NCBI GenBank assembly: GCA_017625835.1 | Contig: JAGAKF010000057.1 | Coordinates: forward strand, 14,662-78,661 | From: Clostridia bacterium | GTDB taxonomy: Bacteria > Bacillota > Clostridia > Oscillospirales > Acutalibacteraceae | Reading direction: 5' to 3' | Length of the DNA stretch: 64,000 bases | Shown: positions 21,070 to 62,126 of the stretch, one piece after another | Layout: each line of letters begins with the position of its first letter | How positions within the stretch are numbered: position 1 is the first letter of the stretch | Notes under the pieces: generated by a model | Told to the model about the DNA's origin: nothing | Databases searched by the model: none | What the model saw: only the letters and a program-made list of their open reading frames with translations | Made by a program: the position numbers and the translations under genes

Positions 21070-21129
21070 TTTGTCTGCCTCCACTGTATTTTTCTTTATT
21101 TTAACACAATGAACGGCAGTTTGTAAACT

Positions 21130-38949: not shown

Positions 38950-40176
38950 TTACTGTGCTTTCTTACTTTTATCTCTTTTTTTGAAAAAGAACACCTGTGC
39001 TGCAATTATTGCTCCGCCACAGAGAACAACTGCAATAAACCGTCCGATTGTGAAATCGAACTTAAGAGTAACTGCCTTTTTTTCGCCCGGGGTAAGATTA
39101 TCGTATGCAGACTGCAGGGCGTGGCGCGCATTCTGCAACTCAGATAAAGAACCTGTACCGCTAAGGAGATTCTGCGCCGTTTCCAGAGCTGATTTAAAAT
39201 CATTCTCCGTATCCGTCGTATGCGGCTGAAGATCAGTTGACTTGTATAAATCAACGTAGTAACTAAGCGTTTCCCTTTCGTCGTCGATCTGCGCAAGATA
39301 TTCGTTGAACTGCTCGGGATAATCGGTTTCAATTACGGAATACCCGTTTACAATAAGGTCGTCCCAGCCTCTTTCGCTGTCGGGACGTTTACCGCTTCGT
39401 CCGTTTACCGTTGAAACCATTGCTTTGCCGTTTTTGTCAAAACGTTTCATAAGAAAATCGTCGTAAAGCACACCGTTTGCATTTGCGCTTCCGAGCTCAA
39501 CTATGTTCATTCCGTTTTCGAAGGACTTCTTCACGGCTGAAGTTGCCAGGAAAATTATGTTGCCCTGATAGTTGCCGAAAACAGTAATGTCATCATAAGC
39601 AGACGTTGTCTTTACGATATCCGATATTGAATCCGAAACAAAACGGAAAACCACCTTGTCTGTTGCGTCAAGCTCTTTCACCTGAGCGTAAACCGATTCA
39701 AAATCTTCACAGTAAGTATTAAGGATAATAACCGAATCTTCACTTGTTTCCGAAACAACAGCCTCAAGGCTTGCAACGTGGCAATCAGTTTTTTTGTTGT
39801 GTGCAGATCCGTTGCCTGCACGAAGATACAGCGACGTCAACTCCTCAAGAGTTTTTTCGGCTACTGCCCCCGAAACAGTATTGCCCTCGGCATCAACAAC
39901 CATTCTGTCCGTTGTATCGTCCGCCATAAGGACAACCTTTTTGTCCTCGGTCACCTGAAGATCAACTGAAACAAAACCGTATTCCGACCCTGCCTTTACA
40001 GCTTCTGCTGAATTTTCGGGGTAAGAATGCCAGTCACCTCTGTGGACAATACAGATGATTTTTTCTGCCGAATCAAGGTCTTCTTTTGTCGCCGCGCCGG
40101 CACTCGTCACAAAGGTATTTGCCAGAAGTGTCAGAACCAATACCGATAATGCTATTTTATTCAAAAAACGAACCAT
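38950..40176 (-). CDS. glycerophosphodiester phosphodiesterase family protein, secreted with a C-terminal membrane anchor
   Basis: Signal peptide, GDPD motif VHRGDWHSYPENS, and a C-terminal TM helix followed by KKRDKSKK. Confidence 0.7.
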   Translation of the reverse strand: MVRFLNKIALSVLVLTLLANTFVTSAGAATKEDLDSAEKIICIVHRGDWHSYPENSAEAVKAGSEYGFVSVDLQVTEDKKVVLMADDTTDRMVVDAEGNTVSGAVAEKTLEELTSLYLRAGNGSAHNKKTDCHVASLEAVVSETSEDSVIILNTYCEDFESVYAQVKELDATDKVVFRFVSDSISDIVKTTSAYDDITVFGNYQGNIIFLATSAVKKSFENGMNIVELGSANANGVLYDDFLMKRFDKNGKAMVSTVNGRSGKRPDSERGWDDLIVNGYSVIETDYPEQFNEYLAQIDDERETLSYYVDLYKSTDLQPHTTDTENDFKSALETAQNLLSGTGSLSELQNARHALQSAYDNLTPGEKKAVTLKFDFTIGRFIAVVLCGGAIIAAQVFFFKKRDKSKKAQ

Positions 40177-41310: not shown

Positions 41311-41460
41311 CCCTTATAAATCAAGATCGGAAATATAATATCACACTAAAACATTAAATTCAATACAAAGATTAATTTTTATTACTATTGCATTGTAATT
41401 TTCTGTATGATAAAATTAAAATGTTATTTTCTTTCAAATAAAAGCAAGGAGGCTTATATT

Positions 41461-42582
41461 ATGCAGAAAAGAAAATTTGAAAATCTTGGCGCTGAAGCTT
41501 CACTCCTCGGCTTCGGTTGTATGCGTTTCCCGATGAAAGACGGAAAAATCGACGAGGTTGAAGCCGAAAAACTGCTTGACCGCGCAATGCAGGCAGGCGT
41601 TAATTACTACGACACAGCTTATCCTTACCACGACGGTGAAAGCGAACCTTTCGTTGGTAAGGCTTTGAAAAAATACGACAGAGAGTCATTCTACCTTGCA
41701 ACAAAACTGCCGATCTGGAAGCTTGATTCAATCGCAGACGTTGAAAGAATCTTCAATGACCAGTTGGAAAGACTCGGCGTTGACTACGTTGACTTCTACC
41801 TTCTACACGCAGTTGATATGGAGAAATGGAAGACTATTCTTGAGCTTGGTATCCTTGACTACTGCGACAATCTTAAGAAAGAGGGCAAAATCCGTTATTT
41901 CGGCTTCTCGTTCCACGATGAATACGAAGCTTTTGAGGAAATTATTTCTTACAGAAAGTGGGATTTTGTTCAGCTTCAGCTTAACTACATTGATATCCGT
42001 GAGCAGGCAGGACTTCGCGGTGTTGAGCTCTGCAAGAAGCTCGGTGTGCCGATCATCGTAATGGAACCCGTAAAGGGCGGTACGCTCGCAAAGCTTCCCG
42101 ATGAAGTTGAGGCAAAGTTCAAGGCCGTTGACCCCGATGCAACAACAGCTTCCTGGGCAATGCGCTGGTGCGGAACGCTTGACGGAGTCAAGGTCATCCT
42201 CAGCGGTATGAGCACAATGGAGCAGGTTGAAGATAACCTTAAAACTTTCGGCGACTTCAAGGTGCTTGACGAAAGTGAAAAAGCTCTTGTTCAGGATGTT
42301 GCAGATACGCTCAACAGCAGAATGAGAAACGGATGCACAGACTGCCGTTACTGTATGCCCTGCCCCGCAGGCGTCAATATTCCCGCAAACTTCGACCGTT
42401 GGAACAAGTATGCAGTTTACGGAAACGTCGAGGACGCGAAAAACCGTTGGGCAAACCTTAAAGATGAAGAAAAAGCGCACAACTGCATTGAGTGCGGTGC
42501 ATGCGAAACAAAATGTCCGCAGAAAATCAGCATCCGCGAAGACCTTGCAAGACTTCAGAAAGAGATGGATGCACTTAAATGA
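41461..42582 (+). CDS. aldo/keto reductase with a C-terminal 4Fe-4S ferredoxin-type domain
   Basis: ATG at 41461 behind RBS AAGGAGG. AKR core (YYDTAYPYHDGESE) plus CRYCMPCP and CIECGACETKCP cluster motifs. Confidence 0.8.
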   Translation: MQKRKFENLGAEASLLGFGCMRFPMKDGKIDEVEAEKLLDRAMQAGVNYYDTAYPYHDGESEPFVGKALKKYDRESFYLATKLPIWKLDSIADVERIFNDQLERLGVDYVDFYLLHAVDMEKWKTILELGILDYCDNLKKEGKIRYFGFSFHDEYEAFEEIISYRKWDFVQLQLNYIDIREQAGLRGVELCKKLGVPIIVMEPVKGGTLAKLPDEVEAKFKAVDPDATTASWAMRWCGTLDGVKVILSGMSTMEQVEDNLKTFGDFKVLDESEKALVQDVADTLNSRMRNGCTDCRYCMPCPAGVNIPANFDRWNKYAVYGNVEDAKNRWANLKDEEKAHNCIECGACETKCPQKISIREDLARLQKEMDALK

Positions 42583-43118
42583 AAAGGAAATCCAAAGCAA
42601 CAAAAACAGCCCTCGGCGCAATGCTGACGGCGCTCAGCATTGTTCTACCGCAGCTTTTCCACCTTACGGGCATACCTCAGGTCGGCGCCGTTTTTCTGCC
42701 GATGCATATTCCCGTTCTGCTTGCAGGGTTTACTCTCGGACCTGTATATGGTTCATTTATCGGAATAATTGCGCCCATCGTCAGCCACCTGCTTACAAAT
42801 ATGCCTGCTTCGGCAAGGTTACCGTTTATGGTAGTTGAGCTTCTGGTTTACGGCCTCGCAAGCGGACTTTTTTATCACACGCTGAAACTCAAGAATAAAA
42901 AATTCGGCACTGTGATTTCACTTGTTCTCGCAATGATTATCGGCCGTGTTTTCTATGCCATTGCCCTTGTTATTGCAGGCAAGGTTTTCGGCATTGAGGC
43001 AGGCGGTGCAATCGCGGCTGTAACGGCAACTGTTACGGGAAGCTACGGAATCGGACTTCAGCTTATCACCATTCCGCCTGTCGTATATGCTGTTAAAAGA
43101 GGTGGATTCATCAAGTGA
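42579..43118 (+). CDS. ECF transporter S-component-like membrane protein
   Basis: 179-aa polytopic protein. Its start overlaps the upstream stop (ATGA). Confidence 0.6.
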   Translation: MKRKSKATKTALGAMLTALSIVLPQLFHLTGIPQVGAVFLPMHIPVLLAGFTLGPVYGSFIGIIAPIVSHLLTNMPASARLPFMVVELLVYGLASGLFYHTLKLKNKKFGTVISLVLAMIIGRVFYAIALVIAGKVFGIEAGGAIAAVTATVTGSYGIGLQLITIPPVVYAVKRGGFIK

Positions 43119-43540
43119 GTGACATTCTTACAGCAAAAGATTTGCTGAAAAAAGAAAATGCAACGTTCGTTGCCGTCAACGGAGAAAAGATTTTTATATC
43201 TCATTCACGCGGAGTTGCGCCGATTATCGAAATAATCGACAGCGATGCCGAACTGCTTTGCGGTGCATCAGTAGCGGACAAAGTTATCGGCAAGGCGGCG
43301 GCAATGTTGCTTTCCAAATACAAAGTCAAGGAAATTCACGCTTTACTCGTCAGCGAAAAAGCGCTTGAATATCTTGACAAAAAAAGTATTTCCGTTACTT
43401 ACGACAACGTCGTTGCGCATATAATAAACCGTAACAAAACAGATATGTGCCCGATGGAAAAATGCGTGCTTAACACAACTGACGAAGACGAGGCAGAAGA
43501 GCTTATCCGCCGTAAACGTCAGGAATTAATGAACAGATAA
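43115..43540 (+). CDS. DUF1893 domain protein
   Basis: GTG start overlapping the upstream stop (GTGA). ...SHSRGVAPIIEIID...DKVIGKAAAMLL resembles DUF1893 (TM1506-like). Confidence 0.55.
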   Translation: MSDILTAKDLLKKENATFVAVNGEKIFISHSRGVAPIIEIIDSDAELLCGASVADKVIGKAAAMLLSKYKVKEIHALLVSEKALEYLDKKSISVTYDNVVAHIINRNKTDMCPMEKCVLNTTDEDEAEELIRRKRQELMNR

Positions 43541-43552
43541 GGAGAAATTATT

Positions 43553-43897
43553 ATGCCGATGATATCAACAAAAACATCAACACCCATCACTGCTGAGCAG
43601 GAGCTTATCCTTAAAGACAAGCTCGGAAAAGCAATCGAATGCCTTGCCGGCAAAAGCGATGCCTGGCTTATGCTCGGCTTTGAAGACAACTGCAGACTCT
43701 GGTTCAGGGGCGACAATTCAGCTCCCCTCGCTTACGTTGAAGTAAGCGCGCTCGGAAAAATCAATCCGTCCGATGCCGAAGACCTTACGGCAGAAATCTG
43801 CAACATTTTTAAAGAAGTTCTCGGAATTGACGGAAGCGGTGTTTACGTAAAATACGAAGAAACCGACAAATGGGGCTTCAATGGCGGAAATTTCTGA
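43553..43897 (+). CDS. MIF/tautomerase-superfamily protein (Pro-1)
   Basis: MP at the N-terminus, 114 aa, MIF-like length and pattern. Confidence 0.6.
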   Translation: MPMISTKTSTPITAEQELILKDKLGKAIECLAGKSDAWLMLGFEDNCRLWFRGDNSAPLAYVEVSALGKINPSDAEDLTAEICNIFKEVLGIDGSGVYVKYEETDKWGFNGGNF

Positions 43898-45630: not shown

Positions 45631-45667
45631 CAAAAAGGTAGCAACTTTTGGTTGCTACCTTAATTTT

Positions 45668-48103
45668 TTATTTTTCTGTAATCGGCACGCCCTTGACGCT
45701 TCCGCTTTCTTTCGGAATGAAGATTGTTTTTATCTCCTGCGGTTTGAAATCGAAAGCAAACTTTCTGTCAAGAAGCTTGAAATCAAATTCTGCCATAACA
45801 GGTTTTGACGCACATTCAACAGCTCGTGCAATGTAACCCGTACCGTCCTCGGAAAGCTTTAATGAAGTTACGATAACATTGTCACAGTCGACGGTAATTC
45901 CCTCGTAAACAGGCGGCAATGTTCCCTTATGGTGAGTTTCCTGGTAAAGCTGAAGCGGCATATTAAGCACTTCTGCATCCTTTACAACTGCCGTAAACTC
46001 ATCCTTTGTGTGCGGAACGAGTTCGTATTCGAGCTCAAGCTCATCCATATCAATGAAAGCGATTTCATCGTCGCGGAAACGCTGACCGTAGTGGTCAAGG
46101 AAAGCGCAGGTACGTGCGGCGATCATTCGCATTTCGTTGTCCTTAACGCAGAAGCTGTATCTGCCGTTGTTTATAAGAGCCACACCGCCATTGTCACCCT
46201 GGACGGAAATCCACTTCTGTGCAGGCTCTTCAAGTCCGTCGGGAGCTTTTTTGATAAAGCCGAACGGCATTGAGTAAACAGCCTCGGGATTTTCAACATT
46301 CATCGGGAATGTCAGCTTAAGAATCTTGTACTGTTCCTTGAAGTTGATTCTGCACTTAACAGCTACTTTCGGACTGTCCTTATAAAGAGTGAAATACTGT
46401 TCAAGCTTCGAATCGTTATAATATGAAGTTACTTTAAGCGTTGCACGAAGAGCACCTGTTTCAAGAATTTTGAACTCAGCTTTTGCGAATGAGCCGATAT
46501 CCTTGTTATAGTCAAAAACCATATGGCCCCAGGTGTCGCTTTCAATATCTTCGCAGACAACAGCCTTCATAGGTGCTGAACAATAGTCTTTATTTTCGAG
46601 CTTATTAAAATAAGATTTAATTGCACCGTCAGCATCAAACTCAACTTTTACAATGCTGTTTTCGATTGAATTTTCTGTGATAACAAACTGATTTTCGATT
46701 TCCTGTGCCTCGTGATTCTGGTCTTCCTTATAGATGAAGTATGTTGCATATCCGAATGCAGGCATCTCGACTTCAAACATACACATATTTACGTGATCGC
46801 CGTCAGTATACGGAGCACGTACAAGCTGGAACGGCACGTCATTATCGTCAGAATCCACAACTCCCGACACCCACTGTGTACCGAAGCATACATACTCTTT
46901 TACGGGGAATGAATGAGGATTGAAAACAACCATCGGGCTGCCCTCGCCCTCACGCACCCAGAGTCTGCCGCGCTGTTCGGGAACACCGTTTTCGAAGAAT
47001 TTCGTTGTATTCACCCTCCACGAAATACGCTCTGCGGCAAATGTGCCGACTTCAAGCGCAACTTCCTTGGCACAACCGAATGCAGAATAAGCATCGTCAT
47101 AAGCAGGCTTGATCGAACAACCTGCAAGAATATCGTGGAACTGGTTGAACATAACTCTCTGCCAGGCTCTTTCAATTCTGTCGGTCTGAGTTTGTGAACC
47201 AGTGAGAACATTTGCCATAACGTCAATTTTCTCGGCATAAACAAGTCCGTTTTCTGCCTGACGGTTAAGCATTTTAACCTTTGAATTTGCGCTGTAACAA
47301 CCGCTTGCGTGGTGCTGTAAATCTTCTTTTATTACAGGGAAATCGTCGGGTTCGTTGTTGCGCACATAATCAAAATAAGCATCAACACCCGAATAGATGT
47401 ATTTTTCTTTTCCGTCACCCTCGCGGAGCTTCTCTGCCATCTGCAGAGTTTCGATTGACGGTCCGCCGCCGTGATTGCCGACACCGTAAGCAAGCATCTG
47501 CGAATGAGGCTGTGACTCGTAACGTTCAATTCGTTCCGCCCTGAGGCTGTCACCATAGCCGTCAAGGATTCTGAAAGCAAGAACTCTGCTTCCGTCGGGA
47601 CTCTCCCACCAATGAAGATTTTCAAACGGAAGGTTCGGCTTTTCGGGGCCTCTGTGCGGACGCATATAAACGTAATTTTTTATGCCTGACTTCGCCATAA
47701 GCTGTGGAAGCATACCGTTGTGACCGAAAGAGTCAACGTTGTATGCCGTTTCAGCTTTTTTGCCGAAGTTCTCTGTATAGAATTTCTGCGAATAAAGGAA
47801 GTGACGGGCAAAAGCTTCGCCTGACGGGATATTGCAGTCGGGTTGAACCCACATTGCGCCTGTATACTGCCATCTGCCCTCTTCGACCTTTTTCTTTATT
47901 TCTTCAAACATTTCAGGCTCGCTGTATTTGATCCATTGGTAGTAGCCTGCGCACGCTGAAGTGAAAACATAATCCGGGAATTCTTCCATTCTGTCAAGTG
48001 CCGCCTTGAAGGTAGACTTAACAAGAGCAAGACCTTCGGGCACTCTCCACTGCCATACGGGGTCAAGGTGTGCATTGCCCATCAGAAAATATTTTTTATC
48101 CAT
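45668..48103 (-). CDS. GH38 alpha-mannosidase (cytoplasmic)
   Basis: ATG at 48103 behind RBS AAGGAGA. The N-terminus GNAHLDPVWQW and the region GVGNHGGGP are typical of GH38. No signal peptide. Confidence 0.75.
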   Translation of the reverse strand: MDKKYFLMGNAHLDPVWQWRVPEGLALVKSTFKAALDRMEEFPDYVFTSACAGYYQWIKYSEPEMFEEIKKKVEEGRWQYTGAMWVQPDCNIPSGEAFARHFLYSQKFYTENFGKKAETAYNVDSFGHNGMLPQLMAKSGIKNYVYMRPHRGPEKPNLPFENLHWWESPDGSRVLAFRILDGYGDSLRAERIERYESQPHSQMLAYGVGNHGGGPSIETLQMAEKLREGDGKEKYIYSGVDAYFDYVRNNEPDDFPVIKEDLQHHASGCYSANSKVKMLNRQAENGLVYAEKIDVMANVLTGSQTQTDRIERAWQRVMFNQFHDILAGCSIKPAYDDAYSAFGCAKEVALEVGTFAAERISWRVNTTKFFENGVPEQRGRLWVREGEGSPMVVFNPHSFPVKEYVCFGTQWVSGVVDSDDNDVPFQLVRAPYTDGDHVNMCMFEVEMPAFGYATYFIYKEDQNHEAQEIENQFVITENSIENSIVKVEFDADGAIKSYFNKLENKDYCSAPMKAVVCEDIESDTWGHMVFDYNKDIGSFAKAEFKILETGALRATLKVTSYYNDSKLEQYFTLYKDSPKVAVKCRINFKEQYKILKLTFPMNVENPEAVYSMPFGFIKKAPDGLEEPAQKWISVQGDNGGVALINNGRYSFCVKDNEMRMIAARTCAFLDHYGQRFRDDEIAFIDMDELELEYELVPHTKDEFTAVVKDAEVLNMPLQLYQETHHKGTLPPVYEGITVDCDNVIVTSLKLSEDGTGYIARAVECASKPVMAEFDFKLLDRKFAFDFKPQEIKTIFIPKESGSVKGVPITEK

Positions 48104-48113
48104 AGATTTCTCC

Positions 48114-49133
48114 TTATTTATAGCATTCAACTACTGTCATATCTGCACCTGTGATTGAGAATTTATCCTTGATTACTTCGGGAATGAAGAAATAATCGCC
48201 CTTTGCGATTGCCTTTTCGTAACCGTCACCAATGATTTTGCCCTCGCCCTCGGTTACAACGTAAATGCAAGCGCCCTTATCAAGGACAAAATTACCGCCG
48301 TCAAAGATAATTTTTCTGACCTTAAAGCTTTCTGTAATGCTTTCGTCGATTACAGACTGATAGTCAACTCCCGATTCACTCTTAAGCGGTTTGCTTGAAA
48401 GGGGTACCGGGAAAGTTTTTTCCATGTCAAAGCATTCAAGTGCCGTCTTTTTATCAAGGCCGAGGTACATCTCGTTATCGGAAAGTCTGTATTCACCGCA
48501 CCAGCGTTCAGGCTGAATTGTGAAATCTGTCGGCTCCTGAACCTCAAGAAGAAGACAGCCTGCACCGATCGCGTGAACCATTTTTGCAGGGATGTAGATT
48601 ATATCGCCTGCTTTAACGGGGTAAGATTCAAGCAGTTTTTCCATCGCTGTGAGGCTTGTTTCACTGCCTTCGATAGCTTTTTCAAACTGTTCCATAGTCA
48701 CGCCTTTTTTAAAGCCGTAAAAAATCTTGGCATCGGGTCTTGTCGCAAGGATAACCCAGCTTTCTTCCTTACCGTAGTTTGACTTGAAGTGTTCTCTTGA
48801 AAAAGCCTTATCGGGGTGAGCCTGAACAGGCAATCTGATTGCACTGTCAAGAATTTTTGTAAGGATACCGATATCCTCTCGGTCTCCGATAAGCTCATTT
48901 TTATATTCTTTAAGGGCATCGCTGAGATAAAGGTCAGAATCCTTGATCTTTGAAATGCCCTCGTATTCGTCTGTACTGCCCTCATTAAGAGCGTGAACGG
49001 CAGAAACTACCCATTCTTCGGGGTAATTGCCGTCACTTGAGTCGTCAGAAAAGAAATCCGCAAAAAGCTTTCCGCCTGTGTAAACGCGGAAAACACGGTT
49101 CTTTTCAAAAAACATCGGATAATCAAAAAACAT
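48114..49133 (-). CDS. class I mannose-6-phosphate isomerase
   Basis: Cupin with the VQAHPDK zinc-site motif and the HAIGAG motif. Confidence 0.75.
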   Translation of the reverse strand: MFFDYPMFFEKNRVFRVYTGGKLFADFFSDDSSDGNYPEEWVVSAVHALNEGSTDEYEGISKIKDSDLYLSDALKEYKNELIGDREDIGILTKILDSAIRLPVQAHPDKAFSREHFKSNYGKEESWVILATRPDAKIFYGFKKGVTMEQFEKAIEGSETSLTAMEKLLESYPVKAGDIIYIPAKMVHAIGAGCLLLEVQEPTDFTIQPERWCGEYRLSDNEMYLGLDKKTALECFDMEKTFPVPLSSKPLKSESGVDYQSVIDESITESFKVRKIIFDGGNFVLDKGACIYVVTEGEGKIIGDGYEKAIAKGDYFFIPEVIKDKFSITGADMTVVECYK

Positions 49134-49137
49134 AAAA

Positions 49138-50430
49138 TCACCTGTATATTATAAGTTTCTGTGCTTCGTCAATATTCTCTGCCTTGCCGACCGCAACGAG
49201 CGAAGTCAATGCCGCACCGTAAGCGGCTTCTTCCTCGTAACGCGGAATTTTTATTTCCGCCGAAAAGATTTCGGACACTACTTTCTGCAAAGCAAGGTTC
49301 TTTCTTATTCCGTTGCCCGAGCAGACAATCTGTTCTGTTTTGCCGCCTGCGTACATTGAATAAAGCTCATTTGCGATTGCATAAAGCATCGCAACGGCCA
49401 TATCCCCTGCCGTAAAATTATCCTGCGACATATTCGAAAATCCGCCACGGATTGTCGGGTCCGAACGTGTTCCGCAGAAGCGGCTGTCCGCAACGAGATC
49501 CGTCTGCGTCTTTTCTTCAAGCATTTTGTCAATCTGCTTGTAAAGCGATTGCGGTTTTTCGCCCATTGCCATTTCTACAACGGAGGCAAAGAAGCGCTCA
49601 AGCATCGAGAATGCACGTCCTCCGCAGAGTGCCGCACCGACGATGAGGTATCGTTTTCCGTCGTAGGGTCTCGATTCGATCCCCTCACCTTTTACGGGTT
49701 CGGAATTAAGATAAGAAATCTGCGAGCCTGTGCCGACATTCAGAAGAGGCGCATTGATGCCGACAGAACCAATAAAGCTTGCCTGGTTGTCACCGACTGC
49801 AACGGAAACCTTGATGCCGTTCCATTCACCCACCGTACGGAAATCTGACGTAACTTCGGGAAGCATACCGTTGTCGAGAGTGAACTTGTTTTCAACAATA
49901 TCAAAGCAACCAAAGCTTGCGGCATTTGTGATATGCATAAGCGCTTTTTTTGCTCCCGTAAGCTTCATCGCGATGTAGTCGCCGATCGTACACACACCGA
50001 CAGCATTTTCGGGAACAAGGGAATTTTCGCGGTTATAAAAGTCTGTTACAAGACCGTATCCCGCAAAACTTCCGAGATGCTGTGCATAGGTTTTGCCGTC
50101 CTTGTATGGGAGATTTCCTCTCTCATCCTGCCAGATATAAAGCGGACTTACGGCATTACCGTCAGCATCATAGTACATTATACCGTGCATCTGGTTAGAT
50201 ATGCCGAGAGAATCAACCTCACCTTCAGGCTTGTTTATAAAAAGATGGTTAATTACTTCAAAAACCTTTTCCTCGATAATCGCAACGTCCTGAATTTTTT
50301 CCCAGACGTTCGGCGTTCCGATAAAAGAATCGTTATTATGAGTTGCCGTGCAAATAATCTTGCCCGTTGTTGAATCCATCAGCGCAGCGCAGATGCTCGT
50401 TGTGCCGATGTCTATACCGATTGAATACAT
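49138..50430 (-). CDS. FGGY-family sugar kinase (sedoheptulokinase-like short form)
   Basis: N-terminal IGIDIGTTS, then GDNQASF and NVGTGSQ motifs, 430 aa. Confidence 0.7.
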   Translation of the reverse strand: MYSIGIDIGTTSICAALMDSTTGKIICTATHNNDSFIGTPNVWEKIQDVAIIEEKVFEVINHLFINKPEGEVDSLGISNQMHGIMYYDADGNAVSPLYIWQDERGNLPYKDGKTYAQHLGSFAGYGLVTDFYNRENSLVPENAVGVCTIGDYIAMKLTGAKKALMHITNAASFGCFDIVENKFTLDNGMLPEVTSDFRTVGEWNGIKVSVAVGDNQASFIGSVGINAPLLNVGTGSQISYLNSEPVKGEGIESRPYDGKRYLIVGAALCGGRAFSMLERFFASVVEMAMGEKPQSLYKQIDKMLEEKTQTDLVADSRFCGTRSDPTIRGGFSNMSQDNFTAGDMAVAMLYAIANELYSMYAGGKTEQIVCSGNGIRKNLALQKVVSEIFSAEIKIPRYEEEAAYGAALTSLVAVGKAENIDEAQKLIIYR

Positions 50431-50439
50431 AGTTTCACC

Positions 50440-52767
50440 TCAGCAGCCGAGATTTGATGACTTCGGGTCAAGACGCTTGATGATATCCTGCTGAATTGCA
50501 GGAGAAAGATCAAGGAAGTTAACGAATGTGCCGTGAATTCGCATAATGTAAACTCCGCTCGGAGCATACTTCTTCGGATTTTCAAGCACTTTCTTAAGGA
50601 TTTCTGCCGTTGTAACGTTAACATAGAGATAGAACGGTGCAACGCCCTCGTTGAGCTCGTTGAAGAATAGAGGATTGATAATCTTATCTCTGAATTCAAT
50701 GCCCTTGCCCTCGTCTGTATTGCTTGTGAAATACTTCGGGTCAATTCCGAGGTGTGAAGCATAACCGCCGTTAAACTTATTGAACGGGAGCTTCATATTT
50801 GAAAGCATACGGAAGCCGAGTCCGTTTTCCGCACTGCCGTAAAGCGGGTCAACACCGTAGCCGAGCATATCTCTTGACTTTCTTCCGTCCGGAGTTGCAC
50901 CAACCCAGTAGCCGTAAAGAAGGTGCGTTGACGGGCTTGAGAAATCGGGACGGAAGCTGTTGCCGAGGTAATTCTTTGCGCCTGCAACGATATCTGCAAC
51001 CTTTGAAGCAACCTCAGCCGCGTAGTTGTCCACCTTTTCGATGTTGTTGCCGAATTTATCTGCTGAAAGAAGGAATTCACGTAAATCCTCGTATCCTTCA
51101 AAGTTTGCCTTGAGTGCAGGAACGAGCTTGTCGGCATCCTCGGGACGTTCGCTGAGGAGCTTATCGATTGCGCTGAATGAGTCCGCGATTACGGATGTAC
51201 CGTGGATAAGGCAACCGCTACCGTTGTATTTTGTTCCCTGAGCGTTGAAATCACGCATATCAATGCCGTTTTTAAGACCGCCCATAAAGCATGAAAGGAA
51301 CGGCACGCGCTGAGTTGAAAGGGCTACTGATGCACCGTTTGCTGCCCCTGCCATTTCTTCAACGAAGAATTCAACATTCTTATAGAACTCTTCCTGAATA
51401 TTTTCAAGAGAAGCCGCCTTTGTGTCTGCAAGACGTTCGCCCGTTACGGTTGAAATACCGCCTGTGAGTGTCATTTCAAGAATCTTCGGGAGGTTAAGCC
51501 AGCTGTTTGTTGTGTTGCCGTTGTCCTTTCCCATAATGAGAGGCTCCTGACAGCCTGCGATTGAAATATCAGGGAGATCTTCTGCATCGACACCGTTTGC
51601 ACCAAGAACCTCAAAGAGTGAATCGTCATTGAACATTGACGGAGTAAGCACGCCCGGAGTGAAGAAAAATCTGCCAAGCTCCTCATAAAGTTTCTGCGGA
51701 GTGTTTTTATGAAGCTTGACTGAAAGAATCGGCTGAGGAAGGTTCATATCAAAATATGCGTCAAGCATTGCATATGAAGTATCATTTGTAAGATCGTTTC
51801 CGTCATTGTCACGTCCGCTGATGATGATGTTCTGAGAAATCGCCCAGCTTCTGTCCGCAACGTTGAAGAAAACAAGGAAATGCTTGAAAAGGCCTGCAAC
51901 CGTGTCGCGGTCAAGTCCGTTTCTGTAAGGCTCAAAAATTCTGTCCGCATTACCGACGGAGAAAGCAAACGGGTTCGGGGTCTGCTCAAGGCACATCATC
52001 TGCCACATAAGAATGAATGCCTGCATTGCCTCGTACATATTTTCTGCTCCGTTTTCAGGCACCTTGCGGAGAGTTGCGATCATAAGCTCAAGCTCTGCCT
52101 TGCGCTCGCCGTCTGCCTCTGCAAGCTTTGCCTCTGCAAGGTCAGCGTACTTGTTTGCAAGAGCAATAACGCTTTCAAGAGCGATTCTGAATGCCTTGTA
52201 GCCGTTGCCGTCCTTGTCTTTGATTTCGTCAATCATTGAACGTACACCGTTTTTGATTGCATAACGGAAATCAGGAATCAGGTGTCCCGTAACCTGCTCA
52301 ACGAAATAGATAACTTCCTTTGTGCTGTTCTCGCACTTTGCATATGTTTCGCCGAGTTTCACGGCATAGTCAGTCTTGCTGAACTCCGTTTTTGCCGTTT
52401 CAATACGCTCTGCCGTGAATTCATCATTCGGCTCAATATCGCCGAAAACTGCCGCAGGGTCACAGTAACCGCTGAAACCCTCAACCTTGAATGACGGATT
52501 GATAAGAGCGTAGCTTCTTGCAAAAGCATCGTCCTGAGTGCCTGCAAAAATCTGATTGTCATCAATCCAGAGCGGAACTATATCAACGAGCTCACGAAGA
52601 ATGTATGCTTTCTTCACTTCTTCGCTTTCGTTCTTATATTTTTCCTGAAGCGCAAGTTCGGCCTCTTTAGCGATGAACCAGCCGTCAAGGCGCATCTTTG
52701 CTCGTTCATTTACGAAAAGAGCCTTTGCCTTTTTTGTTAATTTTTCCGGAGTGTAAATATTTGTCAT
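50440..52767 (-). CDS. glycyl radical enzyme, eliminase/dehydratase class, unknown substrate
   Basis: ATG at 52767 behind RBS AAAGGAGA. C-terminal glycyl-radical motif RIHGTFVNFLDLSPAIQQDIIKR. Active-site loop AGCQEP (Cys-x-Glu) rather than the PFL Cys-Cys. Confidence 0.8.
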   Translation of the reverse strand: MTNIYTPEKLTKKAKALFVNERAKMRLDGWFIAKEAELALQEKYKNESEEVKKAYILRELVDIVPLWIDDNQIFAGTQDDAFARSYALINPSFKVEGFSGYCDPAAVFGDIEPNDEFTAERIETAKTEFSKTDYAVKLGETYAKCENSTKEVIYFVEQVTGHLIPDFRYAIKNGVRSMIDEIKDKDGNGYKAFRIALESVIALANKYADLAEAKLAEADGERKAELELMIATLRKVPENGAENMYEAMQAFILMWQMMCLEQTPNPFAFSVGNADRIFEPYRNGLDRDTVAGLFKHFLVFFNVADRSWAISQNIIISGRDNDGNDLTNDTSYAMLDAYFDMNLPQPILSVKLHKNTPQKLYEELGRFFFTPGVLTPSMFNDDSLFEVLGANGVDAEDLPDISIAGCQEPLIMGKDNGNTTNSWLNLPKILEMTLTGGISTVTGERLADTKAASLENIQEEFYKNVEFFVEEMAGAANGASVALSTQRVPFLSCFMGGLKNGIDMRDFNAQGTKYNGSGCLIHGTSVIADSFSAIDKLLSERPEDADKLVPALKANFEGYEDLREFLLSADKFGNNIEKVDNYAAEVASKVADIVAGAKNYLGNSFRPDFSSPSTHLLYGYWVGATPDGRKSRDMLGYGVDPLYGSAENGLGFRMLSNMKLPFNKFNGGYASHLGIDPKYFTSNTDEGKGIEFRDKIINPLFFNELNEGVAPFYLYVNVTTAEILKKVLENPKKYAPSGVYIMRIHGTFVNFLDLSPAIQQDIIKRLDPKSSNLGC

Positions 52768-52780
52768 AGTGCATTCTCCT

Positions 52781-53485
52781 TTAAGTTGCAGTAACGTTAA
52801 GTCCGTTGGCAACAAATAAATTTTTAAATTCAGTAATTGTTTCGTCAGACACAAAGCCGTCAGTTATCTCGTATTCCTGTGTCCACTTATCCTTTCCGAA
52901 TTCGTGGTAAGCAAGAAATTCGAAGACTGTGTTTGCCGTATCGAAACGCTTGAAATAATCGACAAATCCATGAGGATTATCGTTTATATTCTTAATAACA
53001 GGTATTCTTATATGAAGCTGTCTTCCCGAAGCAAAGATTTTTTCGAGATTTGCCTTCACCGCTTCGTTGCCTACGCCTATCCATTTTTTATGAATATCTG
53101 TATCGTAGTGCTTGAAATCAGTTATAAGATAGTCGACATTTTCTGCAATTTTCATAAGATGCGGACTTGAAGCGTTTGTTTCAATCGCTGTGTTTATGCC
53201 CTCATCCTGAAGCTTTTTAAGAAGCTCAATAAGCTCGTCGTGCTGAAGCGCACATTCGCCACCCGTGAAAGTGACTCCGCCGCCGTCAAAAAACATCATA
53301 CGGCTTCGTTTTGCCTCGTCAAGAAGCTCGTCAACCGTATAAATTTTCGCATCGGAACCGTCAGCATTCATGCTTTCAGGATTCGAACACCATTTGCATC
53401 GGAAATTGCAACCTTGCAAATGATATACAAGCCTGTTTCCGGGTCCGTCCTGTGAATAATTGAATCCTTTTTGCAGAATTTTCAT
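52781..53485 (-). CDS. glycyl-radical enzyme activating protein (radical SAM), short form
   Basis: CNFRCKWC CxxxCxxC motif near the N-terminus. 234 aa with no additional Cys-cluster insert. Confidence 0.85.
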   Translation of the reverse strand: MKILQKGFNYSQDGPGNRLVYHLQGCNFRCKWCSNPESMNADGSDAKIYTVDELLDEAKRSRMMFFDGGGVTFTGGECALQHDELIELLKKLQDEGINTAIETNASSPHLMKIAENVDYLITDFKHYDTDIHKKWIGVGNEAVKANLEKIFASGRQLHIRIPVIKNINDNPHGFVDYFKRFDTANTVFEFLAYHEFGKDKWTQEYEITDGFVSDETITEFKNLFVANGLNVTAT

Positions 53486-53525: not shown

Positions 53526-53554
53526 ATTGTATACTTTGACGAACCATTTGTCAA
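53526..53554 (-). promoter_or_regulatory. candidate promoter of the GRE operon, overlapped by a palindrome
   Basis: On the minus strand: TTGACA, 17-nt spacer, TACAAT. The -35 is part of the inverted repeat TTGAC-N10-GTCAA. Confidence 0.45.
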
Positions 53555-57956: not shown

Positions 57957-58937
57957 ATGTGCACTGCAATCAGCTTTAAAACAAAAAACCATTACTTCGG
58001 CAGAACACTCGACCTTGAATATCATTACAATGAAAGCGTAGTAATTACACCGAGGAATTTCCCGTTTGTCTTCACTAACAAATCCGAATCAAAGCATCAC
58101 CTTGCTTTAATCGGCATTGCAACGGTTATGGACTCCTATCCTCTTTACTACGAAGCGACGAACGAGGCAGGGCTGAGCATGGCAGGGCTTAACTTCCCGG
58201 GCAATGCAGTTTTTCATCCGATTGATAAAGATAAAGAAAACGTTGCTCCGTTCGAGTTTATACCGTACATTCTCACACAATGCAAAAGCGTTGATGAAGC
58301 AAAAATGTTGCTTACCAATATAAATTTAGCTGACATTGATTTTCGCCCTGATCTGAAAGCAGCGCCGCTTCATTGGATAATCTCGGATAAAAACGAAAGC
58401 ATAACCGTTGAGTCGGTAAAAGAGGGATTTAAAATATATGACAATCCCATCGGCGTGCTGACAAACAATCCACCGTTTGACTGGCATATGACAAACCTTG
58501 CTAATTACATCAACCTGACACCGGAAGAACCCGAGAACGCCTTTGCACCGTCGGAGGAAATCCGAACGTTTTCCAAGGGAATGGGTGCCGTCGGTCTGCC
58601 GGGAGACTTTTCTTCCGCTTCGCGGTTTGTGAGAGTTGCTTTTACAAAATTAAATTCAGTCTGCGGTGACGGTGAAGAAGAAAGCGTAAATCAGTTTTTC
58701 CGTATTCTCGGCACGGTTTTCAACGTGCGCGGTTCGGTGCGTCTTGCGGATAACAAATATCAGACAACCATTTACACCTCTTGCTGTAACACGGATAAAG
58801 GTATTTTTTATTACACAACTTACGAAAACCCACAGATATGTGTGATTGATATGCATAAGGAAAACCTTGACGGTGACCGGCTTTATGAGTATCCGCTTGA
58901 TCATACTTTAAAATTCCTGACAAATTCGGGGGTGTAG
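57957..58937 (+). CDS. choloylglycine hydrolase family Ntn hydrolase (bile salt hydrolase-like)
   Basis: MCTAISF with the Cys-2 nucleophile, 326 aa, conserved NLANY region. Confidence 0.8.
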   Translation: MCTAISFKTKNHYFGRTLDLEYHYNESVVITPRNFPFVFTNKSESKHHLALIGIATVMDSYPLYYEATNEAGLSMAGLNFPGNAVFHPIDKDKENVAPFEFIPYILTQCKSVDEAKMLLTNINLADIDFRPDLKAAPLHWIISDKNESITVESVKEGFKIYDNPIGVLTNNPPFDWHMTNLANYINLTPEEPENAFAPSEEIRTFSKGMGAVGLPGDFSSASRFVRVAFTKLNSVCGDGEEESVNQFFRILGTVFNVRGSVRLADNKYQTTIYTSCCNTDKGIFYYTTYENPQICVIDMHKENLDGDRLYEYPLDHTLKFLTNSGV

Positions 58938-60109: not shown

Positions 60110-61981
60110 TTATCTTACGCTTTCGTAAAGCTCTACGAACTTACCTGCAACATTTGATGCTGTATGCTCACCGAAGGAGATAAGGCACCATGTGTCTGTG
60201 TCAAATTCGTCGTCTTTTTCGTCGTATTTCATACCTGCCATTACGAACTCCTGGTCAGGCTCGATGTAACCGATAGCGTCGTTTGCAAGGTCGAAGATGA
60301 TTGTGTTCTCGCCGAACATATCGCGGTAGCAATCATACTCAAAACCTTCAAGACCCTTACCGCCCTTAAGCATTTCGCCGTAGTGTTCACCCGGGCTGAT
60401 AAGAACTTTGAGTGAGTCGCCAAGCTCCATGTAACCGCACTCTGTTACTTCGTAGTACTTGCCTGTTGAGCTGTCGTAAAGGAAGAAGTAGTCTGTGATA
60501 CCTGACTTACCGATGATGTCAAGAAGAACGTTTGAAACCTCGATAACATACTGCATATGCTTGATGTTAAGAAGCGGCTTAACGGGCTCTTCCTCAACAG
60601 GTGTCCAGCCTTCGTACCATACTGTGTAGTTTTCCTGACCCTCGTACTTTGCAACGTCAAGGAAGTCGCCAAGCTCGAAGTTAAGAGCCTTACACTCAGC
60701 TTCTGTCAATTCCATACCAAGAAGGAAGTAACCGATTTCCCAACCATAACGTACAGCTTCTTCATATCTTGTAAGGTCAAGTCCGTCGTTTGAATAGTGA
60801 CGGTCGTATGTAATTGTACCTACCATACCCTGAATGAATATGAAATTGTAGCCTGCTGCGTTAAGAACTTCTTCCGTGTAAGGAATGAAGTCAGCAGAAA
60901 TAACTGTGTGGCCAAAACCTGAGTTTTCAGGATGAACGCCGAATGTTGCGATGATTGTGGGAGTTGCACCCTTCTTGTCAGGTGTGAACTCAAGACGGTA
61001 CATATTTCCATCGTAGTTATCGGGATATGTTCTGTCGCGAAGGTAATGGTCGCCGATATCCATTGTTGCGAGTGTAAGTTCGCCTGTCTTCATGTCTGCA
61101 GTTGCATCCTTGATTGACTTAGCTGTCTGGTCAATAATTGTCTGAAGGAACTTACGGTCAACACCGCTCTGAAGGTCAGCAAGACCGAGAGCACCGAGTG
61201 TGATGTTGTTAAGAACATTGTTTACTGTGTTGTCCCATACGCCCTGAAGGTCGATACCTGAGTGAGTATGAGTAACAGAAACGTTGATGCTTACGATATC
61301 GTTAGCCTCTGCAAAATCTGCAACAGCAGCACGGATAAGTCTTACGTCTGCATTTGCGATACCGATTGCGTCAAGAACACAGAAAGCAACCTTGCCTCTG
61401 CCTGAACCGTCATCAAGAACGATTGTACGAACCCAGAGACCGTCAAAAGTTTCTGTTGTTTCAGCCATAAGGCCGTAACCGCCCATTGTGTACGGAACTG
61501 TGCCGAAGTCATCGGGAAGGATTGATTCCTGAGCATAGCCGAGGCTCCATCTTGCACCTGCTGCAGGCTCATCAAGGAACTCGTCCATACCTGCATAGAA
61601 GTTGCCATACTCATCAATGTTGAAATCCTTGTAAGAATTCAACGCGGGAGTTGACGGAATGAAGAGGTTGAGAACTCGTCCTATTACTGTGATAAGAACG
61701 TTTGAAAGAGTGTTTACAACCTTTGCAATGCAGTTCATAAATACAGTCTTTGCGCTTGTTGATGAAAGAGCTTCGAAATCATCGCCGAACTTGTCCGCGA
61801 AGTCGGTAACGAAACCTAAAGCAGATTCAAAATCAATACCTGCGCCTGCAAGTGCATCGTTTACTGTTGTGTCGGTTACTGTTTCTTCAACAGTTGTCTC
61901 AGCAAAAGCCGGTACCGCAGCGGGAACCATAAGGCTCAAGCAAAGAATAACCGAGATAACAGAAAGAAGTAATTTTTTCAT
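60110..61981 (-). CDS. secreted hydrolase, neutral-ceramidase N-terminal-domain-like
   Basis: ATG at 61981 behind RBS AAAGGAGA. Signal peptide, and the motif VSVTHTHSG resembles the ceramidase zinc-site motif. A terminator follows. Confidence 0.4.
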   Translation of the reverse strand: MKKLLLSVISVILCLSLMVPAAVPAFAETTVEETVTDTTVNDALAGAGIDFESALGFVTDFADKFGDDFEALSSTSAKTVFMNCIAKVVNTLSNVLITVIGRVLNLFIPSTPALNSYKDFNIDEYGNFYAGMDEFLDEPAAGARWSLGYAQESILPDDFGTVPYTMGGYGLMAETTETFDGLWVRTIVLDDGSGRGKVAFCVLDAIGIANADVRLIRAAVADFAEANDIVSINVSVTHTHSGIDLQGVWDNTVNNVLNNITLGALGLADLQSGVDRKFLQTIIDQTAKSIKDATADMKTGELTLATMDIGDHYLRDRTYPDNYDGNMYRLEFTPDKKGATPTIIATFGVHPENSGFGHTVISADFIPYTEEVLNAAGYNFIFIQGMVGTITYDRHYSNDGLDLTRYEEAVRYGWEIGYFLLGMELTEAECKALNFELGDFLDVAKYEGQENYTVWYEGWTPVEEEPVKPLLNIKHMQYVIEVSNVLLDIIGKSGITDYFFLYDSSTGKYYEVTECGYMELGDSLKVLISPGEHYGEMLKGGKGLEGFEYDCYRDMFGENTIIFDLANDAIGYIEPDQEFVMAGMKYDEKDDEFDTDTWCLISFGEHTASNVAGKFVELYESVR

Positions 61982-62126
61982 AATGTATCTCCTTTCGATT
62001 CGAAGTATGACTAAACATACCATAGTAGGTTAATTATATCATATTTTTGTATTTTTACAATATAAAACAATGAAATAATTTTTTGTTTAAAATAACGAAA
62101 AGGAGGTTTAAAACCTCCTTTTAAAA

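Follow-up and report, generated by a model that had tools for sequence, protein, structure and literature searches.

The window analysed here, a 64,000-nucleotide stretch of a Clostridia bacterium (GenBank assembly GCA_017625835.1, contig JAGAKF010000057.1), carries on its minus strand a compact set of five genes with a glycyl radical enzyme (GRE) in second position. This GRE matches no characterised enzyme against which it was tested, and a sugar alcohol or an anhydro-sugar is probably broken down through it by a new anaerobic route. Its conserved partners are an activase, an FGGY kinase and a cupin protein which resembles phosphomannose isomerase (PMI); the kinase, together with the cupin, is the defining one, not the mannosidase of glycoside hydrolase family 38 (GH38) with which the set ends. 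The features are listed with the basis of each assignment (ORF, open reading frame).

52781–53485, minus strand: activase gene (ORF call and Pfam)
50440–52767, minus strand: GRE gene, 775 aa (ORF call and Pfam)
49138–50430, minus strand: FGGY kinase gene, 430 aa (ORF call and Pfam)
48114–49133, minus strand: PMI-like cupin gene, 339 aa (ORF call and Pfam)
45668–48103, minus strand: GH38 gene, 811 aa, a 3' accessory (ORF call and Pfam)
53526–53554, minus strand: sigma-70-type promoter-like site, TTGACA-17-TACAAT (consensus match)
45635–45661, both strands: terminator-like hairpin (stem of 11–12 bp, then T-runs on either strand)
51541–51558, minus strand: Cys loop AGCQEP with Cys406 and Glu408 (exact translation)
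50524–50541, minus strand: glycyl radical motif RIHGTF with Gly746 (exact translation)

The operon and its glycyl radical enzyme

A prediction made earlier from the letters of the window (the original prediction) had described five packed minus-strand genes separated by 4–13 nt. The gene boundaries are confirmed: in the order activase, GRE, FGGY kinase, PMI-like cupin and GH38 the successive gaps measure 13, 9, 4 and 10 nt. The promoter-like site agrees with the consensus at 11 of 12 positions and is situated about 40 nt 5' of the activase ATG, within the 183-nt divergent region common to the activase gene and argC. The terminator-like hairpin is located directly 3' of the GH38 stop and is common to the convergent acyl-CoA ligase gene. 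Because a promoter-like site is present upstream and a terminator-like hairpin downstream, the five genes look like a single transcription unit. Neither flank is related to it: the argCJBD cluster is divergent, the acyl-CoA ligase gene convergent. The mechanical ORF call opens the GRE gene at TTG 52854; a start at ATG 52767 is preceded 8 nt upstream by the ribosome-binding site AGGAG and also fits the 773–776 aa of the homologues. A search of the window with Rfam models gave neither a riboswitch nor a leader RNA. Elsewhere in the 64 kb there is no gene for a sugar transporter, an aldolase or a regulator which could serve the operon, no gene for fructose-6-phosphate aldolase (FSA), for the glycerol dehydrogenase GldA, for a transporter or for a regulator is found near the operon, and the window has no gene of a phosphotransferase system (PTS).

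In the GRE, Pfam recognises the PFL-like domain PF02901 (346 bits) as the sole domain. Translation confirms the C-terminal sequence ...RIHGTFVNFLDLSPAIQQDIIKR and yields the motif set EQTPNPFAFS, WAISQN, IAGCQEP, GSGCLIHG and RIHGTF; RIHGTF and AGCQEP read exactly as they had been quoted in the original prediction. The glycine motif RIHG746TF fits the pattern R-[VI]-x-G-[aromatic or polar]; throughout the family R743 and G746 do not vary, and they align with the RVAG of PflD, YbiW and glycerol dehydratase (GD); H745 is likewise invariant in the family alignments. The Pfam model Gly_radical (PF01228) did not reach E ≤ 1e-3 on the window GRE; it is recorded for the relatives P0126, P0132, P0140 and P0141, which are 32–45% identical. 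The loop A-G-C406-Q-E408-P has a single Cys and lacks the Cys-Cys of PFL. C406, Q407 and E408 are invariant in 75 sequences of the window's own clade A and in 70 of its sister clade B. Alignment marks Cys406 as the predicted thiyl-radical residue and Glu408 as the predicted general base. A Cys-x-Glu motif defines the 1,2-eliminase/isomerase class of GREs (PMC13450708). The ten-stranded barrel fold of the PFL type, the C-terminal glycine motif, the catalytic Cys and the adjacent CX3CX2C activase all place the protein in the PFL-like division of the GRE superfamily.

Within this superfamily the distance to all characterised enzymes compared is large. The best NCBIfam score was obtained with TIGR01774, the PFL2/glycerol dehydratase subfamily (238.7 vs a cut-off of 678.2). 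It was followed by the models for HypD (187 vs 1100), for PflD-type enzymes (PRK09983, 180.9 vs 1109), for the sulfopropanediol dehydratases HpsG/HpfG (176 vs 1000), CutC (147 vs 1050), IAD (116 vs 1100), PFL (66 vs 994) and HPAD (48 vs 1150). No equivalog or subfamily cut-off of NCBIfam was reached. The identity to every solved GRE is 20–27%. The top PDB match is the glycerol dehydratase of Clostridium butyricum (1.4e-55), and the next sequence matches are the PFL2 of Archaeoglobus fulgidus, PflD and a propanediol dehydratase. An AlphaFold2 model (pLDDT 86.7, pTM 0.89) retrieved more than 40 GRE chains with Foldseek at TM scores of 0.80–0.85 and with 20–24% identity to Cys-x-Glu GREs; glycerol and propanediol dehydratases, PflD, YbiW, HypD, HplG, CutC and IslA are near-equal fold matches. 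Since the TM scores to all Cys-x-Glu GREs are near-equal, the GRE is a deep, separate branch of the eliminase/isomerase class, close to no single member. The original prediction of an uncharacterised GRE of the eliminase type is borne out by the Cys-x-Glu loop, by the failure of all NCBIfam equivalogs and by the low identity to solved enzymes.

Mapped by hand on a phmmer alignment, His162, Cys406 and Glu408 align with His164, Cys433 and Glu435 of GD. The GD residues His281, Ser282, Tyr339, Asp447 and Tyr640, which, beyond this triad, are among the residues that line the glycerol pocket, align with Phe267, Ala268, Ser311, Thr420 and Ser610. On this mapping, the pocket would be larger than that of a C3-diol enzyme and rich in Ser, Thr, Asn and Gln. 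The partner of His162, His164, is the proposed proton donor of GD; a 2026 review of GREs cites His164, Cys433 and Glu435 of this enzyme. Two features of the GRE are unusual, R-I-H-G in place of R-V-A-G and a two-residue insertion in the strand EQTPNPFAFS. In one GRE-like relative, P0129 (36–38% identical), an Asp replaces the catalytic Cys (loop GVVGDELP) and the glycine site reads RVPGA; it may be a degenerate or repurposed family member. P0129 was contained in alignment A1, the input to the structure model and to the genome scan, and was not used for functional inference.

The activase (234 aa) shows the Pfam domains Radical_SAM (75 bits) and Fer4_12, and TIGR02494 scores 173.8 vs a cut-off of 174.35 in two stretches. 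Its only cysteines are those of the CX3CX2C motif (C26/C30/C33), and a ferredoxin-like insert for auxiliary clusters is absent. By these motifs it is a predicted GRE-activating radical SAM enzyme of a minimal, PFL-AE-like form. An activase of the sister clade (L009:1692-2558, 288 aa) has an extra Cys-rich insert with Cys57/72/75/80, and the activases beside more distant relatives have 311–330 aa and ferredoxin-type domains. A minimal activase of the PFL-AE type which serves a Cys-x-Glu GRE is an unusual pairing.

Conserved partners in two clades

A motif scan of one genome per species detected a relative of the GRE in at least 584 species genomes of GTDB; at least 500 metagenome contigs encode one as well. 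The best 80 of these at least 584 GTDB species loci, with GREs 68–96% identical to that of the window, constitute clade A as counted here, and for each neighbour only loci with enough flank were considered. All 80 stem from metagenome-assembled genomes (MAGs) or uncultured assemblies; Acutalibacteraceae, Ruminococcaceae or Clostridia is the label of nearly every one, and ruminant, horse or human gut was the source of many. The closest GRE proteins, 79–99% identical and from MAGs, bear the name 'hypothetical protein' or 'pyruvate formate lyase family protein' in those sources which name them at all. An exhaustive profile search reveals a graded family at 63, 54, 45, 38, 37, 35, 32 and 31% identity; beyond it are generic GREs of about 30% identity which align only from about residue 160.

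In clade A the activase is adjacent to the GRE in 64 of 65 loci, the FGGY kinase follows it in 71 of 72 and the PMI-like gene is present in 64 of 68, whereas GH38 is adjacent in 14 of 57. Of the five-gene synteny in the original prediction, four genes therefore hold and the mannosidase does not. No tight match with an identical active site exists among the characterised enzymes compared, and the linkage to the PMI-like gene is conserved; on neither count is the prediction refuted. Most clade A loci consist of the four core genes, with neither a regulator nor a transporter beside them, and a few have a ROK or LysR regulator. In about 20 other clade A loci, as in L001, L002 and L006, a flavin reductase-rubredoxin-rubrerythrin fusion (about 392 aa) is encoded directly 3' of the PMI-like gene. 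In this lineage, with a GRE about 80% identical, the fusion occupies the position which GH38 has in the window. It could protect against oxidative stress beside an oxygen-sensitive enzyme, or the arrangement could merely be conserved synteny of the lineage.

The PMI-like protein exceeds the Pfam cut-off for PMI_typeI_cat narrowly (23.5 vs 22) and contains MPI_cupin_dom and Cupin_2; TIGR00218 (manA) gives 87.2 vs a cut-off of 116.2. In the PDB it matches the PMI of Bacillus subtilis (1QWR, 2e-15). The metal ligands Q104, H106, E124 and H187 are invariant in 69 orthologues. The region of the phosphate-binding Arg has an insertion of 8–9 residues which phmmer and MAFFT place differently, and the AlphaFold2 model is poor (pLDDT 61.7, the catalytic half below 50).

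The GH38 protein has the N-terminal, middle and C-terminal domains of the family (186, 58 and 101 bits in Pfam) and the motifs NAHLDPVW and VDSFGH, which we take to be the metal-binding and nucleophile motifs. The closest solved structures are mannosidases of the Ams1 type. By its domains and motifs the protein belongs to GH38 and is a putative short-type alpha-mannosidase. The MngB equivalog scores 100.7 vs a cut-off of 1138, and a MngB-type mannosylglycerate-6-phosphate route is unsupported by this score. Of the 14 clade A loci with an adjacent GH38 gene, seven have the short type of the window (69–97% identical), six another GH38 of 1023–1037 aa (24–26% identical), and one (L079) a short paralogue upstream, beside a six-hairpin glycosidase and a ROK regulator. 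GH63/MGH1-like hydrolases are encoded close by in two lineages (L052, L059), and a fourth GH38 type of 1423 aa is found near a 31%-identical GRE.

Three loci from the genus of the window (L016, L017, L019) share both flanks, argC and the acyl-CoA ligase gene, and are collinear with the window at 81–85% nucleotide identity. The sole break, at about 45636–48112 of the window, is exactly the GH38 gene, from the stop of the PMI-like gene to the shared terminator. GH38 is a recurrent but dispensable accessory gene. A chance adjacency was rejected in view of the three GH38 lineages that adjoin the cluster; an obligatory link was rejected on account of the 14 of 57 loci and of the clean indel in close relatives. 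The term 'mannoside-catabolism operon' of the original prediction is not fully supported: in the window GH38 belongs to the same predicted transcript, but most related loci lack it.

The kinase has FGGY_N and FGGY_C domains which both score above the Pfam cut-offs, and it belongs to the FGGY family. The XylB model gives 81 bits vs a cut-off of 380; no equivalog was reached. 'Sedoheptulokinase' is the name which one JGI source gives to a homologue of 65% identity, and by its domains and scores we regard the kinase as a putative short member of a divergent, sedoheptulokinase-like FGGY subfamily.

A different picture emerges in the sister clade. Clade B was sampled as 80 loci from a metagenome scan seeded with a 63%-identical relative, many from human gut samples, and its GREs are 58–65% identical to that of the window. 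All segments which align with known active-site elements of GREs are essentially identical in the two clades. Among the shared residues are E157, Q158, H162, N265, A268, S270, S311, Q312, N313, C406, Q407, E408, K414, N418, T419, T420, R505, K513, C519, H522, R606, D608, S613, T614, H615, R743, H745 and G746. Because these segments are essentially identical, clades A and B are likely to catalyse one kind of reaction, and their substrates are likely to be identical or closely related. Neighbours of clade B were counted up to 10 kb away, in the 53 loci whose flanks were long enough.

activase: 50 of 53 loci
Zn-dependent polyol dehydrogenase: 25 of 53
GntR regulator: 25 of 53
XylB-type kinase: 21 of 53
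other FGGY kinases: 21 of 53
ROK: 20 of 53
DeoR: 19 of 53
CUT2 ABC transporter: 16–18 of 53
class II aldolase: 15 of 53
sedoheptulokinase-like kinase: 15 of 53
FSA: 11 of 53
class II FBP aldolase: 8 of 53
PfkB kinase: 7 of 53
deoxyribose-phosphate aldolase (DeoC): 6 of 53
mannitol dehydrogenase family: 5 of 53
PMI-like: 3 of 53
GldA: 2 of 53

An adjacent GH38 gene was found in none of the clade B loci. An FGGY kinase is encoded within 10 kb of most clade B GREs, usually directly beside the activase or the GRE. Curated models confirm several of the neighbours: xylulokinase scores 478–513 bits (cut-off 380), FSA 309 (214), DeoC 247 (117) and GldA 391 (336), and rhamnulokinase and D-psicose 3-epimerase are confirmed as well. 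The FSA is 34–35% identical to FsaA and FsaB of Escherichia coli. Two loci (L142, L151) encode on a single strand activase, GRE, GntR regulator, sedoheptulokinase-like kinase and FSA; L151 also has a CUT2 transporter upstream. Farther out, a 37%-identical GRE sits between a sugar ABC transporter and a xylulokinase, and a 35%-identical one is accompanied by an FGGY kinase, a class II aldolase, a RuBisCO-like protein, a KpsF/GutQ isomerase, a PfkB kinase and a lyxose isomerase. The clade B loci are polyol and rare-sugar islands.

Within the sister clade (L100–L179) the pocket of the GRE varies together with the kinase. The variant Y267/W609/A610/C669 accompanies a XylB-type kinase, a Zn dehydrogenase and FSA; the variant F267/F609/S-or-A610/Y669, which is the signature of the window, accompanies the sedoheptulokinase-like kinase. 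Because pocket variants co-vary with the kinase subfamily, this argues that kinase and GRE act on the same carbon skeleton.

Candidate substrates and reactions

The reading which we favour, tentatively and with less than even confidence, is a PTS-independent, kinase-coupled radical C–O cleavage. An anhydro-hexitol or hexitol would be converted to a deoxy-ketose, and the PMI-like protein and GH38 would constitute a mannose feeder branch. The activase would install the glycyl radical on Gly746, and Cys406 would take a hydrogen atom from a carbinol carbon of the substrate, a hexose-level compound with neither charge nor carbonyl group. The likeliest substrates would be a 1,5-anhydro-hexitol or a hexitol, possibly manno-configured; pentitols are candidates, too. 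Glu408 would deprotonate the hydroxyl and the vicinal C–O bond would break, by ring opening or by loss of water, for which His162 may serve as acid. Ring opening of a 1,5-anhydro-hexitol would have a precedent, dehydration of a hexitol or pentitol would have none.

The product would be a deoxy-ketose, e.g., 1-deoxy-fructose, and the sedoheptulokinase-like FGGY kinase would phosphorylate the terminal carbon before or after the GRE step. XylB- and sedoheptulokinase-type kinases could plausibly phosphorylate a deoxy-ketose; E. coli XylB phosphorylates 1-deoxy-xylulose. A class I aldolase encoded elsewhere would then release glyceraldehyde-3-phosphate and a small carbonyl compound as electron sink, a step for which the relatives would use the FSA or DeoC they encode. 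In the co-transcribed mannose branch an imported alpha-mannoside would pass via mannose to fructose-6-phosphate, possibly with the same kinase. The context of clade B is transferred to the window because of the 58–65% identity and the essentially identical active-site segments. A GRE lineage unrelated to YbiW and PflD has, in its relatives, the same kinds of downstream enzymes, and an FGGY kinase replaces the PTS.

Possible as well, and a step less probable, is that the family is a radical sugar-alcohol dehydratase. A hexitol or pentitol would be converted to a 1-deoxy-ketose or a 2-deoxy-aldose, followed by an FGGY kinase and an aldolase of the FSA or DeoC type. The polyol dehydrogenases of the sister islands favour polyol substrates, and in this case the GRE branch would be the redox-balancing arm of the pathway.

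Several points weigh against kinase-coupled cleavage to a deoxy-ketose. The PMI-like gene, near-universal in clade A, has no role in such a route and is accounted for only by a mannose branch which runs in parallel. The sister loci with FSA and those with DeoC would call for distinct deoxy products in spite of nearly the same active sites. The recurring glycosidases, i.e., GH38, GH63/MGH1-like and rhamnosidase-like, may indicate that the substrate is a glycoside or an aglycone. None of FSA, DeoC, GldA or a sugar transporter is encoded near the operon in the window or in the 80 clade A loci. Further, 1,5-anhydromannitol is rare in nature, and we know of no precedent for a hexitol dehydratase. 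Finally, the active-site residues are assigned by alignment only, and the substrate is one we infer.

In the original prediction the GRE may act on the aglycone of an intracellular mannoside. GH38 or another glycosidase would liberate mannose and an aglycone, e.g., from mannosylglycerate or a mannosyl-polyol, and the GRE would dehydrate the latter (glycerate to pyruvate or malonate semialdehyde, glycerol to 3-hydroxypropanal). Mannose would proceed via kinase and PMI-like isomerase to fructose-6-phosphate. Every gene of the operon is thereby given a job, and all five are apparently co-transcribed. Three GH38 lineages adjoin the cluster, the GH63/MGH1-like hydrolases of L052 and L059 and the six-hairpin glycosidase with GH38 of L079 add to the picture, as does the 1423-aa GH38 near the 31%-identical GRE; to our knowledge GH38 and GH63 are the two families that hydrolyse mannosylglycerate. 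Glycerol dehydratase is the top match in sequence and structure, and the His/Cys/Glu triad is kept. On the other side, 43 of 57 related loci lack GH38, which within the genus comes and goes as a clean indel, its MngB score is far below the cut-off, the pocket residues of GD are not conserved, and the kinase is of a ketose type whose subfamily co-varies with the GRE pocket. Above all, the sister clade has the same active-site residues in polyol islands with no adjacent GH38 and with a PMI-like gene in only 3 of 53 loci. The aglycone proposal is not fully supported by these data, and we consider it unlikely.

More doubtful still is a divergent short-chain diol dehydratase for 1,2-propanediol, glycerol or ethylene glycol, operating as an electron sink when sugars or deoxy-sugars are fermented. 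In the PDB, glycerol and propanediol dehydratases indeed match best, and the rhamnulokinase, a FucA-like aldolase and GldA of the sister islands could yield 1,2-propanediol. Yet TIGR01774 is clearly missed, five of the eight contact residues of GD are replaced by smaller ones, and neither operon nor window encodes microcompartment shell proteins, an aldehyde dehydrogenase or an alcohol dehydrogenase. Further, this reading offers no reason why the GRE is so tightly paired, and co-varies, with a sugar kinase.

Least probable of all is that the GRE cleaves a glycoside or sugar ether, which no member of the superfamily is known to do, by beta-elimination across C2–C1 of an alpha-mannoside to 1,5-anhydrofructose and the aglycone or by removal of an O-alkyl group: glycosidases of several families recur beside the cluster, the pocket appears enlarged, with Ser, Thr, Asn and Gln along its walls, and the reaction is chemically analogous to the C1–O5 cleavage by YbiW/PflD (PMC13450708), yet the proposal is purely inferential, a hydrolase in the same operon would duplicate a glycoside lyase, most loci have no glycosidase and the roles of FSA and DeoC are unexplained.

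Wider context and comparison with known systems

Other genes of the window hint at a gut organism which works on host or dietary lipids and glycolipids: a GH123 glycosidase (19444–21084, minus strand), a GDPD phosphodiesterase (38950–40176, minus), a protein of the choloylglycine (bile salt) hydrolase family (57957–58937, plus) and a ceramidase-like protein (60110–62023, minus). An ORF of 738 aa (36721–38937, minus) combines a beta-lactamase-like PF00144 domain (residues 29–303) with a C-terminal dUTPase PF00692 (605–736); it is either an odd fusion or two genes read through. What may be a small cluster of unknown function is located at 41407–43897 (plus): first an aldo/keto reductase fused to a 4Fe-4S dicluster domain, then an ECF transporter S-component, a TM1506/DUF1893 protein and a MIF-like tautomerase.

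Several reactions of gut microbes which affect the host depend on GREs; trimethylamine, p-cresol and H2S precursors, for example, are formed in this way, and hydroxyproline is used. With at least 584 species-level genomes the family described here is large; most of the loci examined come from gut samples, and no curated equivalog model covers it. If the polyol-dehydratase reading is true, an NAD-independent, redox-balancing 'radical polyol glycolysis' would be widespread in human and ruminant gut Clostridia; we know of no GRE for which it has been described. An assignment would probably demonstrate by which route sugar alcohols or anhydro-sugars are fermented in strict anaerobes that have no PTS for them, the relevant compounds including dietary polyols, silage mannitol and 1,5-anhydroglucitol. 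Radical enzymology could thereby gain a new class of substrates or a new type of bond cleavage. That whole GRE clades are still unassigned is stressed by the 2026 review of the field.

The literature searched contained no coupling of a GRE with an FGGY kinase, nothing relevant on a GRE with a mannosidase or with polyols, and no characterised pathway with the architecture of the operon; anhydroglucitol was treated together with aldolase and hydroxyacetone only in the 2026 review. This agrees with the original prediction, to which no characterised GRE pathway coupled to GH38, PMI and a sugar kinase was known.

The nearest chemical parallel is the 'anhydroglycolysis' of E. coli (Ma et al., JACS 2024, as summarised in PMC13450708 and PMC12441222). 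After phosphorylation by the PTS, YbiW and PflD, which in these two papers are the only known GREs for sugars, cleave the C1–O5 bond of 1,5-anhydroglucitol-6-phosphate or 1,5-anhydromannitol-6-phosphate, i.e., substrates at the sugar level, to 1-deoxy-fructose-6-phosphate, which aldolases split into glyceraldehyde-3-phosphate and hydroxyacetone (PMC12441222, PMC13450708). FSA and GldA are the downstream enzymes (PMC13450708), and fsaA or fsaB and gldA are neighbours of ybiW and pflD. Both systems have Cys-x-Glu GREs with a His aligned to His164 of GD, and FSA and GldA are neighbours in E. coli as in sister-clade loci. The differences are considerable. The window GRE is 22.7% and 26.5% identical to the two enzymes (range 22–27%), its partner is an FGGY kinase instead of PTS components, the activase has 234 aa compared with 292–299 aa in PflC and YbiY, and the glycine motif is RIHG, not RVAG. 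Further, EQTPNPFAFS contains two residues more than ES--N[GA][HS]S[LV]S, and the operon has no aldolase while it has a PMI-like gene and GH38. Membership in the YbiW/PflD group was rejected by identity, by the PRK09983 score and by the lack of PTS and FSA genes in the window.

The B12-independent glycerol dehydratase (1R8W/1R9D) and the GRE-type 1,2-propanediol dehydratases (5I2G, 9RCO) are the top matches (1.4e-55, TM 0.83–0.85), and the catalytic Cys, Glu and His are kept. The GRE differs from them in its 22–27% identity, in a TIGR01774 score which is 440 bits short, in the exchange of H281, S282, Y339, D447 and Y640 of GD for F, A, S, T and S, and in a context devoid of 1,3-propanediol dehydrogenase or microcompartment genes. 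An identity as glycerol or propanediol dehydratase was rejected by the model cut-offs and the pocket residues.

Two non-radical systems share parts of the architecture. With the L-fucose and L-rhamnose pathways, consisting of isomerase, FGGY kinase and aldolase, the operon has in common a cupin-type aldose-ketose isomerase beside an FGGY kinase; it differs in a kinase which fits no equivalog and in the lack of an aldolase. With mannoside catabolism by class I PMI and GH38 (1QWR, MngB) it shares the logic of converting mannose to fructose-6-phosphate, whereas the PMI-like protein does not reach the cut-off for manA (87 vs 116) and the GH38 is remote from E. coli MngB (100.7 vs 1138). From both systems the operon is set apart by the radical enzyme inserted between activase and kinase.

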